DNA of 32,000 nucleotides from an uncultured archaeon (lineage in GTDB: Archaea; Asgardarchaeota; Thorarchaeia; Thorarchaeales; Thorarchaeaceae). Positions within the stretch are counted from its first letter, which is position 1. Each line of letters opens with the position of its first letter. The notes beneath the pieces are model-generated. The model was not told the DNA's origin, searched no databases, and was given only the letters and a program-made list of their open reading frames with translations. The DNA is taken from NCBI GenBank assembly GCA_964354495.1, contig CAYHAA010000004.1:150001-182000 (forward strand). Reading direction: 5' to 3'. Both the position numbers and the translations under genes were made by a program. Below are positions 11,425 through 20,655 of the stretch, in pieces.

Positions 11425-11973
11425 CTACGTTTCCTTCTGCTCACGATTGGCGACGAGGACCCTTGCAAGCTGCTCAAAGATATCGATGATTCCCTCTCCA
11501 GTCTTCGCACTCGACTCGACGTATGGCATGTTGCGGCTGTCTGCGAATTCGCGCCCTTCAGATGGTTCAACCACGCGGTCGGGAAGATCGGTCTTGTTCG
11601 CTACTAGAATCAGCGGTATGTCCTTTCCAAGCGCCTTGTGAAGTTCCTCTAGCCATTCTTGAAGCACGATGAAGGTCCTTCGTCTCGTCACATCATAGAC
11701 AAGTACACCACCGCTCGAACCCCTATAGTACATGGGCCTCAGAATCTGAAACCGAGACTGTCCAGCAACATCCCAGATCTGCAGTTTCACAGTCACCTTT
11801 TCGCGCTCCGACTTTATGATTTCAACATTCTTGACAGCAAACTGGGAGCCAATGGTAGTCTTGTAATCAGTCCTGAAGAATCCGTGAGAAAAGCGGGTGA
11901 CTATAGCTGTCTTGCCCACTGCGCCTTCTCCTAGAACCACGATTTTGAACAAGAAGTCATAGGTGCTACTCAT
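11425..11973 (-). CDS. Rab-like small GTPase (Ras superfamily)
   Basis: G1 GEGAVGKT, G2 YKTTIG, G3 WDVAGQ, G4 NKTD, G5 SSAK. ATG 11973 (MSSTYDFLFKIVVLG) has a GGAGG-like RBS and is preferred over 12012. Confidence 0.95.
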   Translation of the reverse strand: MSSTYDFLFKIVVLGEGAVGKTAIVTRFSHGFFRTDYKTTIGSQFAVKNVEIIKSEREKVTVKLQIWDVAGQSRFQILRPMYYRGSSGGVLVYDVTRRRTFIVLQEWLEELHKALGKDIPLILVANKTDLPDRVVEPSEGREFADSRNMPYVESSAKTGEGIIDIFEQLARVLVANREQKET

Positions 11974-12364
11974 ACGGCAGTCCTCCAGCTGTGTAACCGA
12001 GGTGGAATGCATACGTGGCTACGATATCGACATATGAACAGTCTTCGTGTGTATTCATGAAAGATCCCCATGCAGTCCATCGGCCTAAACAGTGGTTGCG
12101 CATTCGAAGCCTAAGTTACTGATGGCACTAATAAGGTTTCGCGATGTATTGCACCAAGGGACCTAGATAGGATAATCAACACGACATGATTCTATTCAAT
12201 AACGCGGAGTTTCCTCTATCTGCATTCACGAAAAAAGCTTACCAATCGTATTCTCAACTTCCTCAACATCAAACACTGCAGTCATGCAAGCCATGGCGAA
12301 TGCGAAGATTCTGTCGTGCCAATTTCAAAAGAATCTAATATGACTCGTCAGGGACATAAGAGGA

Positions 12365-13738: not shown

Positions 13739-13843
13739 GGGCGAGAATGAGTGATATCCACATGAAAACCCAATTTCGTTGCACAGTATATTGTTCAGGT
13801 ATCTTTTTCTCCAGAGTATACAGACATGGCGACTGTGAGTTCA

Positions 13844-15220
13844 ATGGCGGACAGACTCTTCGGAACAACGGGCGTGCGAAAGGTCTATGGAAAAGAGTTC
13901 GACCTTGAAATGGCTTTGAACTTAGGAAAGGCACTCGGAACCCTGCTTGGAGGAGGAACAGTCCTCCTAGCAAGAGACACGAGAACTACGGGACTCATGG
14001 TCGCAGATGCATTCTCTGCGGGTCTGCTCTCTACAGGAGTGAACGTAGTTCGAACAGGCATCATCCCAACACCCACGCTGGCATTCACAGCGATGAACAG
14101 AGAACTCGATGCAGGCGTCATGGTGACTGCATCGCACAACCCACCAGAGTATACGGGGGTAAAATTCTGGTCTAAGAGCAGTATGGGCTTCACACCCGAG
14201 GAGGAAGAGAAGATTGAGCAGATCTACGTATCGAAGAAATTCAAGGTCGCACCTTGGGATCAACTGGGAAAGGAACTCAGAACAGAGACCGCTGTTGAAG
14301 AGCACATCGAGGCAATCCTAGCAAGATGTGATGCAGGCCTGATAAGGTCGAAGGCATTCACAATAGTAGTCGACCCAGGTAACGGCGCAGCATGTGTTCT
14401 CACGCCATATCTCATGCAGAAACTTGCTGGCAAGGTCGTCACAATTAACAGTCAGCCCGACGGACACTTTCCAGGACGAATCTCTGAACCAGATGAGAGC
14501 TCCCTTGGTGACCTCATTCAGATGGTGAAAGACATTCGTGCAGACCTTGGCATTGCTCACGATGGTGACGCTGATAGAGTGGTGTTTGTGACTGAGAAGG
14601 GCGAGGTAGTCAGAGGAGATAGAACGATTGCGCTTCTCGCTCAAGACTATCTTGGAACTACGAAGGGGGGAACCTTGGTCACCACTGTGGATAGCTCACT
14701 GGTACTTGACGAGACCGTCAAGAGAAGAGGCGGCAAGACAGTTCGAACACCTGTGGGGGACATCCAAGTTGCAATCAAAGTAAGGGAGACTGATGCAGTC
14801 ATGGGGGGCGAAGCCTGTGGGGTGTTCATTCTCCCAGAGTTGCACCTTGCCCCGGAGCCTTTTCTTGCAGCCTGCAAGATTCTTGAAAAAATGGCAAGAA
14901 CAGGAAAGAGTTTTGGAGAGCTCATTTCAGGTATTCCAGCATATCCTCTGATGAAGGCCAAACTGAACTGTCCAAATGAGAAAAAGGCACAAGTAATGGA
15001 TGCTCTTGCAAACATGCTCCCGAAGGCACTAGAGAATGTCGTGCAGGTCCTAACTGTGGACGGCATTGGGATCACTCTAAAAGAGGGATGGGTCCTAGTA
15101 CGACCGTCAGGTACAGAACCGGTGATAAGAATCACCTGTGAGGGCCCCACAGAGGCGCTGGTCAAGAAAGTATTGAGCGTAGTGAAGCGTGCTGTTGAGA
15201 AGACAGTCAAATCGATATGA
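13844..15220 (+). CDS. glmM: Alpha-D-phosphohexomutase (phosphoglucosamine mutase / PMM-PGM)
   Basis: LFGTTGVR, TASHNP (phospho-Ser), DGDADR (metal loop), GGEACG and VRPSGTEP. ATG 13844 (MADRLFGT) preferred. GlmM versus PMM/PGM specificity is uncertain. Confidence 0.85.
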   Translation: MADRLFGTTGVRKVYGKEFDLEMALNLGKALGTLLGGGTVLLARDTRTTGLMVADAFSAGLLSTGVNVVRTGIIPTPTLAFTAMNRELDAGVMVTASHNPPEYTGVKFWSKSSMGFTPEEEEKIEQIYVSKKFKVAPWDQLGKELRTETAVEEHIEAILARCDAGLIRSKAFTIVVDPGNGAACVLTPYLMQKLAGKVVTINSQPDGHFPGRISEPDESSLGDLIQMVKDIRADLGIAHDGDADRVVFVTEKGEVVRGDRTIALLAQDYLGTTKGGTLVTTVDSSLVLDETVKRRGGKTVRTPVGDIQVAIKVRETDAVMGGEACGVFILPELHLAPEPFLAACKILEKMARTGKSFGELISGIPAYPLMKAKLNCPNEKKAQVMDALANMLPKALENVVQVLTVDGIGITLKEGWVLVRPSGTEPVIRITCEGPTEALVKKVLSVVKRAVEKTVKSI

Positions 15221-15298: not shown

Positions 15299-15685
15299 AT
15301 GAGCAAAGAAAAAAAGGAACTTGAAGATGCCGTGATGGGGGAGTTCGAGTGGGCACTTCAGGATCCAAATACACAGAAGATTCGCCAGCTCGGGGAAGTT
15401 GTTAGTATCATCACCACCAAGCTAACTGAAGCCATCAGTAGTCTACAAGCAACGACAACTCAGCTCCAATCGCAGGTCAGTGCCCTGGAATCAAGGATTG
15501 ATTCTCTCTCGAACCGCGTTTCTGGTGGCGCAACCATATCAGCAGGACCCTCAGCAGCCGGAGGACAACCAATTGCTGGCATGGCAAGAGCCCCAACAGC
15601 TCCACCGCCCTCACCAGGAGGGGGCATGAGCATGATGGGAGAACTCAAACAACTTCTAGCCGCCAGAAAGAGAAAGGCAGACTAA
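15299..15685 (+). CDS. 128-aa protein: coiled coil, Gly/Ala/Pro linker with PPP, and C-terminal WH2/central-like basic amphipathic helix
   Basis: Clean ATG ORF filling the gap between glmM and bshB, with its own TATA candidate. Heptads over residues 28-74; APTAPPPSPGGG; MSMMGELKQLLAARKRKAD. The ORF is well supported; the function is inferred. Confidence 0.8.
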   Translation: MSKEKKELEDAVMGEFEWALQDPNTQKIRQLGEVVSIITTKLTEAISSLQATTTQLQSQVSALESRIDSLSNRVSGGATISAGPSAAGGQPIAGMARAPTAPPPSPGGGMSMMGELKQLLAARKRKAD

Positions 15686-15703: not shown

Positions 15704-16357
15704 TCACATGAGGCTTTCAACGCTGTTTTCTCTGTAGAAAGGTCCAGCATGTTCAGGCAGGGTGATTGAAAAGGCCTCAGCGCGTTCGCATTTCGACTGG
15801 ACTCCACGAAGGCGTGTTCTCGCATCGTAGAGCTTTTCATAAAAGAGATCGGCTTTCTCAATCTGTGACTTGTGTTCTTTGATTGCGTTGAAAGCATAGT
15901 CATATGAATTTGAAATATCAACATACACATGAGGTCGGGAGATCAGAGTGTTGATCTCCATGTTGTAGATTCGTTCAACGCGGTGTGCATCGTCAAAGAG
16001 TGTTGTGTGGGATGCCCATTCAACAGCATCGAAGACTATCTGTGCACAATGTTGATGATTCACATTGTAGTCTCCAGAGAAATGAGTAATCACTATCTTC
16101 GGACGCGATTTGAGAATGGCTCCGACGACCTCATTTCGAAGGCTCATGTCAATGGCAAAGTCATCGCGCTCGCTTAGATAGAGGTTCCGCACACCAAGCT
16201 GGGCACATGCAGACTTCATTTCGGCGTTCCTTATTTCGTTGCCCGTCATACAGTGCACGTCAACAGGAGTCCCCATGTCAGCATGTTTTCGTATCGTACC
16301 GCCGGCACCCAGACTCTCGTCATCCGGGTGTGCAACCACAACAAGGACAGAGCTCAT
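15704..16357 (-). CDS. bshB: PIG-L/LmbE family deacetylase, BshB-like
   Basis: VVAHPDDE motif, R-x-x-E (RNAEM), VDIS, SQ and RG...AEAF; divergently adjacent to bshA. The family is certain; the BshB assignment rests on context. Confidence 0.8.
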   Translation of the reverse strand: MSSVLVVVAHPDDESLGAGGTIRKHADMGTPVDVHCMTGNEIRNAEMKSACAQLGVRNLYLSERDDFAIDMSLRNEVVGAILKSRPKIVITHFSGDYNVNHQHCAQIVFDAVEWASHTTLFDDAHRVERIYNMEINTLISRPHVYVDISNSYDYAFNAIKEHKSQIEKADLFYEKLYDARTRLRGVQSKCERAEAFSITLPEHAGPFYRENSVESLM

Positions 16358-16454
16358 ATGTGCGTGTTCTTTCAGTATCTAATCAAGGTTTGGCATGTTC
16401 GATTGTGCAGACCAAGTGCCTTAAAGGGCAACAGGAATAGACCAGTCAGAAGGT

Positions 16455-17621
16455 ATGGCTATGCGAATTGGTGTGAATCTCTACCCTTCATTTGGTGGTA
16501 GCGGTCATGTTGCAACCCGACTTGGCCAACACCTGGCGAACAAAGGGCACATAATCCACTTCATCACCTATCAGAGACCCTTCTCATTGATGTGGCAGCA
16601 GACAGAGGGTGTCCACGTCGACCTTGTGGACAGCTTTGATTATCCTCTGTTTGACACGATTGGACCACCCTATACTATGGCGCTCACATCAAAAATCGTC
16701 AAGGTTGCTAAGGATGCGGAGTTGGACCTCATCCATGCGCACTATGCGATTCCTCATGCGATGGCGGCATATATGGCACGTGAAATCAATGGGATTCCCT
16801 ATGTGGTCACACTTCATGGCTCCGATGTGCATACACTGGGTCAGGATCCTGCATACAAGCCAGTTGTCCAGCACACTGTGGAGAAGGCTGATGCTGTGAC
16901 TGCTGTCTCCCAATTCCTAGCAGACAAAGCGCACAAAGGGCTTGGAATCAAGAGGGATATTCATGTCATCCCGAACTTTATTGATACAACGCAGTTCTCC
17001 AAGGTCCTGGGAATCAGGCTTGTTGTAGAGAGAGGGTGCGTATCGGTTCGGAAGGAGGAGGATGCCTTTGAGATAGAACCAGAGGACAAAATACTGCTGC
17101 ATGCCTCTAATTTTCGAAAGGTCAAACGTGTCGTTGAACTTGTCGAGATCATGCGCACTGTCGTAGACCATAATCCAAATGCAAGACTCGTAATCGCAGG
17201 TGATGGACCCACACGTATTGATGTCGAGCGACGAATAGAGGACTTGAAACTATGTGACAATGTACATCTCTTGGGTGTGAAAAGCAACATGCAGGAAATC
17301 ATGTGTTCCTCTGACATCTTCTTGCTCAATTCGACACTTGAGGGAATGCCTCTCACGCTCTTGGAGGCCATGGCATGCAGCCTTCCTGTAATCACAACAC
17401 CTGCAGGCGGAATTCCTGAGCTCGTTCGTGCAGACAAAGATGGAATTGTCACGAAGGGCTTCGAGCAGGAGGAGTTTGCACAGGCAATTCTTCACCTCCT
17501 TGAGAATGAGGGCGAAAGAAAGAGACTGGCAAAGGCAGGTCGACAACGTGTCAATACTTTTGACTCCAACAAGATTGTTCCTATGTACGAGAATGTGTTC
17601 AACGAAGTCGTCAAACGTTGA
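16455..17621 (+). CDS. bshA: N-acetyl-alpha-D-glucosaminyl L-malate synthase (GT4), BshA
   Basis: YPSFGGSGHVAT, DLIHAHYAIPHA, VTLHGSDV, HASNFRKVKRV and EGMPLTLLEAMA match the BshA-specific pattern, not only generic GT4. Confidence 0.9.
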   Translation: MAMRIGVNLYPSFGGSGHVATRLGQHLANKGHIIHFITYQRPFSLMWQQTEGVHVDLVDSFDYPLFDTIGPPYTMALTSKIVKVAKDAELDLIHAHYAIPHAMAAYMAREINGIPYVVTLHGSDVHTLGQDPAYKPVVQHTVEKADAVTAVSQFLADKAHKGLGIKRDIHVIPNFIDTTQFSKVLGIRLVVERGCVSVRKEEDAFEIEPEDKILLHASNFRKVKRVVELVEIMRTVVDHNPNARLVIAGDGPTRIDVERRIEDLKLCDNVHLLGVKSNMQEIMCSSDIFLLNSTLEGMPLTLLEAMACSLPVITTPAGGIPELVRADKDGIVTKGFEQEEFAQAILHLLENEGERKRLAKAGRQRVNTFDSNKIVPMYENVFNEVVKR

Positions 17622-17635
17622 GGAGGACGTATATC

Positions 17636-19351
17636 GTGAAGCCGAGCGTCTATGATGTGTATCACGACTTCATCTGGAAAGGGAAAGACACTAAGCTCGC
17701 TCAGATACTGTATGATAGTCCGCCGCTCACAATGAATGGGATATGTAATCGAGTGCCAGAGCTCATGAAGAAGTATGAGAAGACTCTCTGGCATATTGAC
17801 GAACGAATGAAGCTTCTTGAGAGAACTCTCATCTCCTCAAATCGGGACCTTGGATGCCTCACAGAAGACACCAGGTCCAGTATCAGGTCTCTGAAGAACG
17901 GAGCCATTGAGTCAGCACACCAGACTGTGGTTCTGGGGGGTCCTGTGTATGTCCTGAACAAGGCAGCAACAGCAAAACGACTTGCCAGTCTATGCGCTGA
18001 GAGAGGACTTGACCTTGCACCCTTCTTCTGTCTTGCGGACTATGACGTTGTTCAGCCAGAACTCACGAATATCCGTCTACCTGTACTGGGTTCAGAGTGC
18101 ACACTCGTGAGCATCCCAGTGCCTCAGGGCTATGAGAACTCACCAGTGAGTGTGCTTCCCCTACCAGCGAGAGACTGGTACAATCAGGTTGAGGACGATA
18201 TCAGAACAACTTACAGGCCGATGTTCAAAGCACTAGAGGGACCTTCTAGAACGCTTCTAGATGAGCGGCTTGAGCAGGCCTTGTCGATTCTTCGTTGGAG
18301 TTACACCAACTCCACAACTCTGGCAGAATGGGCAGCACGAACACTGGGCAGGCTGTTCAATATAGAAGGCGATTTGGGCATCCCACTGCTCTTAGCATCT
18401 TCTGAGGGTATCAGAGACCTTCTTGTCGAGGGCCTGGAGTTCCTTCTGGCTCGTGAGAACCGGGAGAGATTCTTGGCCACGTTCAATGAAGTGACCACAC
18501 TGATCGAGGAGAAAGGATACAACCCTGGAATTGGTTTCAGAGGAACTGATTACGTGCCATTCTTCTATGATTGTCCCGGAGAAACCTGCAATAAAGCAAG
18601 GACAGAACTTCACTATGAGGACAGAGGGACAACTGCGCTTCTCACTGGAACCTGCCCGTCCTGCTCTGAGAAGATTGAGATTGAAACATCCGCAGATACA
18701 CCATATCTCGGTGATATTGCTCGGAGTATCTCGCTACGCGTGGACTCTAGACAACTTGCAATCGACTCAATAATACCGACCGTCACCCACGTCGGTGGTC
18801 CTGGTGAAACAGCATACTATGCACAGGTGATACCCAGTGCGCGAGCGATTTCGGCTCCGTTCCCAATGTTCGTCAAGTATCCCAGAGTCTACTTCAATAC
18901 GCCCTGGAATGAGCAATTGGCAAAGTCACTCGAAGAGAGAGAGATGCCAGTCCTTCAGAGAAGGGACTTGTTCAATATCATGGGGAAAGTCTCGAAATAC
19001 AGAAAGAAGAACCAAGTTGATGAGATGAATCAGGAACTTGAGAACCTCGAGAGTCTGATACTGGAGAGTCACGCCGAACTCAATAACAGACTCAGAGGAA
19101 TAGAGCCAATAGTTGCTGACAATTCAAGAGAAGAAGCAGCCACTCATCTTGGCCTCAAGATGGATCTAGAACGATATCTTAGTTGGGCCTTTGGCCAGTT
19201 CGCCGAGGGCAAACTAGGACAAGAGTCTTCATGGTCATGGATCGAGTGGGCCATCAATTCAGGCTTCAGTGATCTCTTTGGCCCTTATAGCCGTGCATAC
19301 CTTGGTCAGATGAAGATTGGCGGCACCATCTTCATCAATTTCTCATTATGA
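17636..19351 (+). CDS. bshC: Bacillithiol cysteine-adding enzyme BshC-like protein
   Basis: SAHQTVVLGGPVYVLNKA (cf. TGQQ..GPLY..K), FFCLADYD and PTVTHVGGPGETAYYAQ (cf. GGPGE.AY). GTG 17636 has an AGGAGG RBS at 17621-17626; TTG 17618 is the alternative start. Coupled to bshA. Confidence 0.8.
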   Translation: MKPSVYDVYHDFIWKGKDTKLAQILYDSPPLTMNGICNRVPELMKKYEKTLWHIDERMKLLERTLISSNRDLGCLTEDTRSSIRSLKNGAIESAHQTVVLGGPVYVLNKAATAKRLASLCAERGLDLAPFFCLADYDVVQPELTNIRLPVLGSECTLVSIPVPQGYENSPVSVLPLPARDWYNQVEDDIRTTYRPMFKALEGPSRTLLDERLEQALSILRWSYTNSTTLAEWAARTLGRLFNIEGDLGIPLLLASSEGIRDLLVEGLEFLLARENRERFLATFNEVTTLIEEKGYNPGIGFRGTDYVPFFYDCPGETCNKARTELHYEDRGTTALLTGTCPSCSEKIEIETSADTPYLGDIARSISLRVDSRQLAIDSIIPTVTHVGGPGETAYYAQVIPSARAISAPFPMFVKYPRVYFNTPWNEQLAKSLEEREMPVLQRRDLFNIMGKVSKYRKKNQVDEMNQELENLESLILESHAELNNRLRGIEPIVADNSREEAATHLGLKMDLERYLSWAFGQFAEGKLGQESSWSWIEWAINSGFSDLFGPYSRAYLGQMKIGGTIFINFSL

Positions 19352-19383: not shown

Positions 19384-20655
19384 CTAACCAAGCTCTTTCG
19401 ACAATAGATGCCCAAGTCGCGTAATTCCTTCAGATATGATATCAGGAGGAGCATAGCAGAAGCCAAGTCGCATAGTATTGCCTTCTGGCACACTTGACTC
19501 CAGGTCATTACCATCAGCTGTGAGCTTATGTCCAGTGATAGGATAGAAGGGGCCTCCAGGTACATAGAGCACTTCATTGGGCATTGCTACATCTTGCATG
19601 AACTCACTTGAGTTGAAGTCAGGATTCTCGCTCTGCCACCAGATGAAGAAACCTCCGGTCGGGTCGCTGCGCGTCCCGGCTGGAAATGAGTCGTCTATTG
19701 CCTTTGCCATTGCCGCACACCTCTTTCTATACAATGGAATGGCAACTCTCATGGCATCGTCGATATGTTTGTTGTAGTACTCATCAAGGATACGTTGGGC
19801 AAACGTCGCAGTACACAGGTCAAGGTAACCCTTGTCTTTGAGAACCTGCTCTCTGACATTATCTGGCAATACTGAATACCCAACTCTCAAGACAGCTGCC
19901 TCCTTACTACTTGTCCCAAGGTAAGCAATTCGAGAGTTGTCCTTGTCGAGGGTCTTGATGGCCTTGGGATTGTCTTTGAACTGAATCTCAGCATAAGCAG
20001 CGTCTTCAATAACGAGGATGTTATGGTTCTCACAGATATCGAATAGAGCTCTACGTCTATTCATAGGCAGAGTTGTTCCCTTCGGATTGTCGCTGTCAGG
20101 AACAACATAGAGCAAGTCAGGATTCTTACCAAATTTGATCTTCGAGAGGTGAATAGCTCGTTCAACAAACTCCGGGATGATTCCTTTGTTGTCGGTGGGC
20201 ACAGTAATCACTCTTGCACCAAGCTTCACAGCAGGAACAAGAAATCCGAGGTATGCGGGAGCCGGTGTGATAATGACATCGCCGGGATCTATCATTGTGT
20301 CCAACAGGGCATAGAGCGCCTGCTGCGACCCATTGGTAATGGATACTTGTTCCCATTGGGTTTCGCAATCAATAGGTATCTTGCGGACCTTGCACAGTCG
20401 ACGGGCTAGCGTCTTGAGGAACCATGGTTGGCCACCCGTTGGACCGTAGTTCAGATCATCCAGAGCCATCTGTGGGTCTTTTTTATACATGACACTCAAT
20501 TCAGCCATGATGTCAGCGAAGATGTCAGTAGGGATGATCCCGGGCTTTCCGCCAGCAAAATAGTACTTGACCTTGTATTTGAGAAGCGCACGTATTTGAG
20601 ATTCCTCAACAAAAGAAGTCCAGGTTGCAAAACCGTAGCAGTTATCTTTTGCCAT
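19384..20655 (-). CDS. PLP-dependent class I/II aminotransferase (LysN/Aro8-like)
   Basis: FAGGKP, ITNGSQQAL, PAYLG, DNPKGTT, IEDAAY and GTSSK...LRVGY (PLP lysine). Confidence 0.92.
   Translation of the reverse strand: MAKDNCYGFATWTSFVEESQIRALLKYKVKYYFAGGKPGIIPTDIFADIMAELSVMYKKDPQMALDDLNYGPTGGQPWFLKTLARRLCKVRKIPIDCETQWEQVSITNGSQQALYALLDTMIDPGDVIITPAPAYLGFLVPAVKLGARVITVPTDNKGIIPEFVERAIHLSKIKFGKNPDLLYVVPDSDNPKGTTLPMNRRRALFDICENHNILVIEDAAYAEIQFKDNPKAIKTLDKDNSRIAYLGTSSKEAAVLRVGYSVLPDNVREQVLKDKGYLDLCTATFAQRILDEYYNKHIDDAMRVAIPLYRKRCAAMAKAIDDSFPAGTRSDPTGGFFIWWQSENPDFNSSEFMQDVAMPNEVLYVPGGPFYPITGHKLTADGNDLESSVPEGNTMRLGFCYAPPDIISEGITRLGHLLSKELG

Follow-up and report, generated by a model that had tools for sequence, protein, structure and literature searches.

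A probable bacillithiol-type gene cluster in a Thorarchaeota genome

We analyzed a 32-kb window (the whole stretch of DNA under study, positions 150,001 to 182,000 of contig CAYHAA010000004.1) from a Thorarchaeota assembly of 3.3 Mb in 51 contigs that is rated 97.7% complete, and we find between its positions 15704 and 19351 a cluster of three genes whose product, judging from their sequences, is most likely bacillithiol or a close variant. Bacillithiol is a sugar-cysteine antioxidant that Bacillus subtilis, B. anthracis, and Staphylococcus aureus, as well as Bacteroidota, Chlorobiota, and Deinococcota, make through the pathway BshA-BshB1/B2-BshC. The three open reading frames (ORFs) are present at their predicted coordinates and encode a PIG-L/LmbE deacetylase (P0001) on the minus strand and, on the plus strand, a glycosyltransferase (P0002) and a BshC-like protein (P0003; Table 1). 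Their family matches have E-values of 1e-14 to 1e-115, which rules out chance similarity. The intergenic region between the first two genes presumably holds both divergent promoters.

An earlier note, made from the sequence alone, had described a PIG-L gene divergent from a glycosyltransferase with a BshA signature, and a ribosome-binding site (RBS) that overlaps the bshA stop; all of these are borne out, with the two genes 97 bp apart and the Shine-Dalgarno sequence beginning inside the TGA at 17619-17621. The same note had given the BshC-like protein 577 aa. This ORF exists and is the longest one (17618-19351, plus strand, from TTG 17618), but its length does not stand, as the true start is most likely GTG 17636, for a product of 571 aa, because this codon lies 9 nt after GGAGG, the homologues are mostly 571 aa long, and the TTG has no RBS ahead of it.

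Table 1. Features of the bsh cluster and its neighbors (positions within the window)
Feature	Positions	Strand	Details
bshB-like PIG-L/LmbE deacetylase gene (P0001), archaeal-type branch	15704..16357	-	217 aa; PF02585, best NCBIfam TIGR04001
AHPDDE motif, P0001 residues 9-14	16316..16333	-	two zinc ligands and general base of PIG-L enzymes; aligns to 2ixd zinc-site motif
DYNVNH motif, P0001 residues 96-101	16055..16072	-	replaces family D-R-H-P-D-H; from alignment to 2ixd
Divergent intergenic region, bshB-like/bshA	16358..16454	.	97 bp, sequence read directly
bshA, GT4 N-acetylglucosaminyl-malate synthase gene (P0002)	16455..17621	+	388 aa; TIGR03999
Shine-Dalgarno GAGGAGG	17620..17626	+	overlaps bshA stop; 9 nt before GTG 17636
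bshC-like gene (P0003), archaeal-type branch of PF10079	17636..19351	+	571 aa from GTG
Cys4 element CPGETC-(21)-CPSC, P0003 C319, C324, C346, C349	18572..18664	+	inside connective-peptide region
Archaeal phosphoglucosamine mutase GlmM	13826-15220	+	TIGR03990 513.8 bits, cut-off 439
128-aa ORF between GlmM and deacetylase gene	15299-15685	+	no Pfam/NCBIfam match
Class I/II aminotransferase, convergent on bshC-like gene	19384-20655	-	no NCBIfam assignment above its cut-off
Ras/Rab-like small GTPase	11425-12012	-	Pfam Ras 166.5 bits

The glycosyltransferase belongs to the BshA family

P0002 has the two-domain architecture of the GT4 glycosyltransferases (PF13439 and PF00534) and scores 386.3 bits against the NCBIfam equivalog model of BshA (TIGR03999, cut-off 273.7), while the next-best family reaches 135.5 bits. 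The protein matches the solved BshA structures 2jjm, 3mbo, and 5d00 over its full length (residues 1-387, E ~1e-74), and keeps 69 of the 82 columns that are invariant in 23 bacterial BshA. The closest bacterial BshA, in a sample of the top 80 from 598 or more loci, are 40-43% identical to P0002 and belong to Ignavibacteria, Bacteroidota, and Rhodothermota, and the BshA of other Asgard families, with 34-44% identity, are about as near.

An archaeal-type BshC bearing a Cys4 element

P0003 belongs to the Pfam family Rossmann-like_BshC (PF10079; 54.2 bits, gathering threshold [GA] 27, residues 51-419), although phmmer connects it to the BshC structure 4wbd with no better than an E-value of 0.004. 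Its AlphaFold (AF2) model (pLDDT 96, pTM 0.94) superposes on B. subtilis BshC 4WBD with a Z-score of 38.3 and an rmsd of 2.9 A over 469 residues, covering residues 8-575 of the model and including the C-terminal helical domain, and a Foldseek comparison of the model also leads to BshC (E 1.7e-19). As modeled, the fold of P0003 is thus that of BshC, i.e. a Rossmann core with connective peptides followed by the C-terminal helical domain; since this fold is present, the objection that the earlier note had raised against its own proposal, namely that the protein might have no BshC/HUP fold, falls away. An alignment of 70 archaeal-type and canonical sequences shows no variation at Q102, K115, D143, and G394, and very little at G396, E397, and Y400.

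Relatives of P0003 among 1.84 billion cluster representatives form a compact set of 47 clusters at E <=1e-30. This near set is followed by a gap, and ordinary bacterial BshC (~535-550 aa) appear only at E ~1e-13 and weaker. The named members come from Thorarchaeota, Hodarchaeales, Ranarchaeia, 'Odinarchaeota', Promethearchaeota, and 'Bathyarchaeota', and all of them already bear the NCBI name 'bacillithiol biosynthesis BshC'.

The archaeal-type proteins carry a Cys4 element (Table 1). Specifically, all 28 archaeal-type representatives have C319 and C346, and 27 of them have C349, while the spacing of the second Cys varies. A Cys is lacking at the columns of C346 and C349 in 68 of the 70 canonical BshC. 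The model of P0003 places the element on beta-hairpins (residues 328-358), as in a zinc ribbon; on this basis the element is probably a zinc ribbon, and would bind zinc.

One protein of the representative library, P0194, is a BshC of otherwise canonical length with a Cys-rich pattern at the position of the archaeal Cys4, and may represent an intermediate form.

A deacetylase with an altered motif

P0001 matches the Pfam PIG-L family (PF02585; 73.1 bits, GA 28.2), and its best match in the PDB is BcZBP (2ixd, E 3e-12). The alignment to 2ixd indicates that the zinc-ligand set of BcZBP/BshB is kept (H10, D13, and H101), and both these residues and the AHPDDE motif are invariant among 121 homologues from Thorarchaeota, which are 70-95% identical to P0001 and named merely 'PIG-L family deacetylase'. 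The segment that ends in H101 departs from the family motif (Table 1), and the form DYNxNH is likewise invariant among the 121 homologues. Because this invariance extends across proteins that are 70-95% identical, P0001 is under selection.

The host genome contains one other PIG-L gene (L023:1471-3263, on G000:C8) that overlaps the start of a GT4 gene which is not a BshA (41 bits on TIGR03999). This second PIG-L matches no BshB model, and the pair probably belongs to a separate pathway for a GlcN-containing glycoconjugate.

Canonical and archaeal-type bsh clusters in Asgard archaea

The distribution of the three genes was surveyed in 400 Asgard genomes, grouped in families (f1 being the host's own, Thorarchaeota); these genomes are related and not independent, so that the co-occurrence counts are descriptive and carry no statistical test. 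BshA scores above its cut-off in 146 genomes, a PIG-L of the P0001 type is found in 145, and PF10079 in 157. Among the 90 genomes that are >=90% complete and <=5% contaminated, the numbers are 33 for bshA, 33 for PIG-L, and 32 for bshC-like. The three genes occur in the same families, the deacetylase sharing the phyletic pattern of BshA, and they are adjacent in four of the families listed in Table 2 (f1, f9, f10, and f14). Within these comparisons, the replacement of the His and Asp of HxDH by Asn in the deacetylase is specific to the Thorarchaeota family.

Table 2. The three genes in Asgard families (numbers of genomes), deacetylase motif, and gene arrangement
Family	Genomes	bshA	PIG-L	bshC-like	Deacetylase motif	Arrangement
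f1 (Thorarchaeota)	85	76	80	73	DYNxNH, also DYNRGH	GlmM - 128-aa ORF - bshB <> bshA - bshC - aminotransferase, kept throughout the family
f8	31	30	31	30		bshA adjoins bshC; PIG-L gene 12-24 kb distant
f9	3	3	2	3	DYHQEH	bshB divergent from bshA, bshC alongside tail-to-tail
f10	12	12	12	11	DYHHEH	bshB divergent from bshA, bshC alongside tail-to-tail
f14	19	16	17	17	DYHPDH, DYHDDH	bshB divergent from bshA, bshC alongside tail-to-tail
f13	12				DRHPDH	canonical bshA-bshB1-bshC operon in 11 genomes
f22 (largest family)	135	0	0	4

The canonical operon of f13 (loci L011 and L024; G082:C41:342500-348600) scores above the curated cut-offs. For example, its BshA reaches ~405-424 bits in ten full-length genes, the eleventh being a fragment of 238 bits that falls below the cut-off, its BshB1 scores 228 against a cut-off of 182.5, and its BshC 380 against 265.8. 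Asgard archaea therefore appear to hold two kinds of bsh cluster, i.e. a canonical one in f13 and an archaeal-type one in at least five other families.

The few PF10079 matches of f22 (e.g. G205:C1:98123-99187) are weak (E ~1e-8), and this family has neither BshA nor a deacetylase of the P0001 type.

A quick maximum-likelihood tree built from 38 BshA sequences unites the proteins of f1, f8, f9, f10, f14, and f32 in one clade (SH-aLRT 93) and leaves the pair from f13 and the bacterial sequences outside it. This single Asgard clade argues for a long vertical co-inheritance of the archaeal-type set. The bacterial sequences were sampled from the 80 loci most like the query (Bacteroidota, Ignavibacteriota, Rhodothermota, Balneolota, and Acidobacteriota), and the tree includes no Bacillota or Deinococcota. 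Given this biased sampling, the quick search, and the unresolved deep forks, the tree gives nothing firm on the origin, the donor, or the direction of transfer.

A published survey of RefSeq genomes from 2025 found no archaeon with a complete pathway (PMC12719100). The canonical operon of f13, as far as its sequence tells, contradicts the statement that the complete pathway is absent from archaea, and as at least five other families have the archaeal-type set as well, that statement reflects the genomes surveyed.

What the cluster probably makes

We consider it somewhat better than an even bet that the three genes encode a pathway for bacillithiol (Cys-GlcN-malate) of an archaeal type. In such a pathway, BshA would transfer GlcNAc from UDP-GlcNAc onto L-malate, and deacetylation by the PIG-L enzyme of the divergent gene would yield GlcN-malate. 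Cysteine would then be attached to GlcN-malate by the BshC-like enzyme, whose gene is translationally coupled to bshA. Malate and cysteine would accordingly be the substrates, and the product would presumably serve as the low-molecular-weight thiol of the cell. The earlier note had proposed bacillithiol or a variant of it, and this proposal fits the equivalog grade of BshA, the modeled fold of BshC, and the finding that the three genes occur together and are linked across Asgard families. Its assignments fare unevenly against the curated models, BshA standing above the cut-off and BshB and BshC below theirs.

Several observations weigh against this pathway, and the first group concerns the proteins themselves. 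P0001 scores below the cut-offs of both NCBIfam models used for BshB, with 80.6 bits against 182.5 for BshB1 (TIGR04001) and 66.3 against 195.25 for BshB2 (TIGR04000), and the first His and the Asp of its HxDH motif are replaced by Asn (N98 and N100), only the last His being kept. P0003 scores 64.9 bits against the BshC equivalog (TIGR03998), for which the cut-off is 265.8, and archaeal-type and canonical BshC share 17-22% identity in the 70-sequence alignment. P0001 and P0003 both lie in divergent archaeal branches. Even in BshA, 13 positions that are invariant in the bacterial proteins are changed, and 7 of these lie before residue 130 (22, 44, 56, 118, 123, 125, and 126).

The second group concerns the partners of the thiol and the state of the biochemistry. 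In the host genome we find no bacilliredoxin (PF06491) and no YtxJ (TIGR04019), and no reductase of YpdA grade, the best candidate being a thioredoxin-reductase-like protein of 81.5 bits against a cut-off of 339.9. A search of five further bsh-positive Asgard genomes, three of them with the canonical operon, likewise gave neither YpdA nor bacilliredoxin. This lack of partners is weak counter-evidence, because Thermus and Deinococcus, used as controls, also have no PF06491. In favor of the pathway, the host genome encodes six proteins of DinB_2, the fold family to which bacillithiol S-transferases belong. Such proteins are common in bsh-positive Asgard families, yet the family f11, which is bsh-negative, also has them in 21 of its 22 genomes, and this makes them a weak marker of bacillithiol use. 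Finally, no archaeon has yet been shown to contain bacillithiol (PMC7278568), which has to date been measured in bacteria alone, and in vitro reconstitution of the BshC step is lacking even for bacteria (PMC5790435).

With regard to other thiol routes, no glutamate-cysteine ligase was found in the host genome apart from a GCS2 fragment of 24 bits, which speaks for a bacillithiol pathway. It also encodes a pyridine-nucleotide disulfide oxidoreductase that resembles CoA-disulfide reductase (G000:C13:41073-42380, minus strand; 324.6 bits against a cut-off of 578.8), and this flavoprotein is a possible candidate for the reductase of the cell's thiol disulfide.

Much of this evidence also bears on a second explanation, in which the cluster makes a compound that resembles bacillithiol and differs from it chemically, either because the aglycone is another hydroxy acid in place of malate or because the ligase adds something other than cysteine. 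The deep divergence of two enzymes into separate archaeal branches, with canonical BshC beyond the gap that surrounds the near set, points in this direction, as do the clade-specific Cys4 element and the pocket of the Thorarchaeota deacetylase, where DYNxNH is accompanied by a Tyr in place of the Arg that precedes HPDH in BcZBP. The substitutions in the N-terminal half of BshA, which include E22R, R44S, H56D, and T126H, and the usual bacillithiol-dependent redox proteins not found in the host genome are consistent with it too. However, BshA lies far above its equivalog cut-off and keeps most of the bacterial-invariant columns, the core residues of BshC are kept, and the sequences offer no pointer to a specific alternative substrate. 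We regard a different compound as possible, and clearly less probable than bacillithiol itself.

A pathway for a glycoconjugate or the cell envelope (a GlcN-containing lipid or glycan), with no soluble thiol and another role for the BshC-like protein, is improbable. In its favor, pairs of GT4 and PIG-L are common in glycoconjugate synthesis, the host genome has another of them, L023, whose glycosyltransferase is not a BshA, and proof of the biochemical reaction of BshC is lacking for every organism (PMC5790435), but the glycosyltransferase of the cluster is specifically of BshA grade (386 bits against 135 for the next family), and the bshC-like gene is translationally coupled to bshA and co-occurs with it in the same Asgard families. 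More generally, a function unrelated to thiols strikes us as very unlikely.

The earlier note had suspected that archaeal bsh homologues might already be recorded in surveys, and they are, both under the BshC name given by NCBI and in a review. Specifically, section 13 of that review reports 39 archaeal InterPro matches each for BshA and BshC, mostly from Asgard archaea, and BshB is not mentioned (Rawat and Maupin-Furlow 2020; PMC7278568). Apart from this review, we came across no publication that deals with bacillithiol in a named Asgard lineage. What the present work adds is some anatomical detail on a pathway that is itself known and that here takes a variant form in a host where it was not expected; with the idea itself already in print and in annotation, its novelty is modest.

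Asgard archaea are the closest known relatives of eukaryotes, and to our knowledge their low-molecular-weight thiol has been measured by no one. The cluster is a concrete candidate thiol pathway for Thorarchaeota and several other Asgard families, and the Cys4-bearing archaeal-type BshC provides a new protein with which to approach the last step of bacillithiol synthesis.

BshC and class I lysyl-tRNA synthetase

Class I lysyl-tRNA synthetase (LysRS-I) is typical of archaea, and the second-best structural match of the P0003 model is to such an enzyme (1IRX; Z 23.6, rmsd 3.2 A, 302 residues), other class I synthetases and MshC following at Z 10-13. The LysRS-I of the host carries CPEC-(29)-CKSC in its catalytic domain, a pattern like the Cys4 of P0003. 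Kinship in sequence went undetected, as hhalign gives a probability of 1.9% for the 70-sequence alignment against the host LysRS-I, and BLASTP of P0003 residues 295-420 yields E-values above 3. The link between BshC and LysRS-I is therefore solely one of modeled structure and a common Cys pattern.

A likeness to LysRS-I peculiar to the archaeal branch was considered and rejected. When a canonical Asgard BshC, which has no Cys4, is modeled, its match to 1IRX is practically as good (Z 22.5, 287 residues), and the kinship thus belongs to the whole BshC family. From these models, it looks as if the archaeal branch has kept a metal-binding insert. It would be a long shot to propose that BshC arose from the catalytic domain of LysRS-I, that the archaeal-type BshC with its Cys4 represents the earlier state, and that the zinc ribbon was later lost in bacteria; if true, bacillithiol-type thiols began in archaea. 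A further thought along this line is that the archaeal BshC may work with another activated donor or another amino acid, and this might be why the bacterial enzyme has withstood reconstitution. We found no literature that links BshC with lysyl-tRNA synthetase, in a search that did not cover the BshC structure paper.

Genomic neighborhood

The archaeal origin that the earlier note had assumed for this DNA is confirmed by the neighborhood and by homology. The nearest homologues of all three bsh proteins carry the names Candidatus Thorarchaeota or Promethearchaeota, and the window also encodes an archaeal GlmM, V-ATPase subunit I, HerA, and a Ras/Rab-like small GTPase, the last being a typical eukaryote-like protein of Asgard archaea. 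The GlmM gene lies 0.5 kb upstream of the bsh cluster, and its synteny with the cluster is kept across Thorarchaeota genera, a family-level conservation that makes a functional link possible. In favor of the proposed pathway, GlmM would feed the synthesis of UDP-GlcNAc, the donor of BshA. The 128-aa ORF is kept at the same place in other Thorarchaeota with 47-59% identity, and the aminotransferase is syntenic across the family with 67-75% identity. No tRNA and no Rfam family were found within the window.

Comparison with known systems

Among the systems to which the cluster can be compared, class I LysRS of Pyrococcus horikoshii (1IRX) resembles P0003 in structure and in its Cys pattern, and differs in having no detectable sequence similarity. 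The mycothiol pathway (MshA-MshB-MshC) has the same logic, i.e. a GT4 transferase, a PIG-L deacetylase, and then a cysteine ligase with the fold of class I synthetases. However, the Thorarchaeota proteins score only 57 bits against a cut-off of 462 for MshA and 31 against 224 for MshB, and MshC is just a distant structural match to P0003 (Z 10.4).

The bacterial pathway, whose product has a mass of 398 Da (PMC6178380), involves the same three enzyme families. The Thorarchaeota BshA is of equivalog grade, the fold and core residues of BshC are common to both, and bshA and the bshB-like gene are neighbors, as in the operon of B. subtilis (PMC5790435). By contrast, the Thorarchaeota BshB-like and BshC-like proteins fall far below the curated cut-offs, the set has the Cys4 of its BshC, DYNxNH for HPDH in its deacetylase, and an archaeal host, and a search of the host genome gave neither Brx nor YtxJ nor YpdA.

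The canonical operon of f13 differs from the Thorarchaeota cluster in that all three of its proteins score above the NCBIfam cut-offs, its BshA falls outside the clade of the host, its BshC has no Cys4 pattern like that of P0003, and its deacetylase keeps DRHPDH. Nevertheless, the two clusters belong to the same phylum and, as predicted, to the same pathway, with adjacent genes in both.

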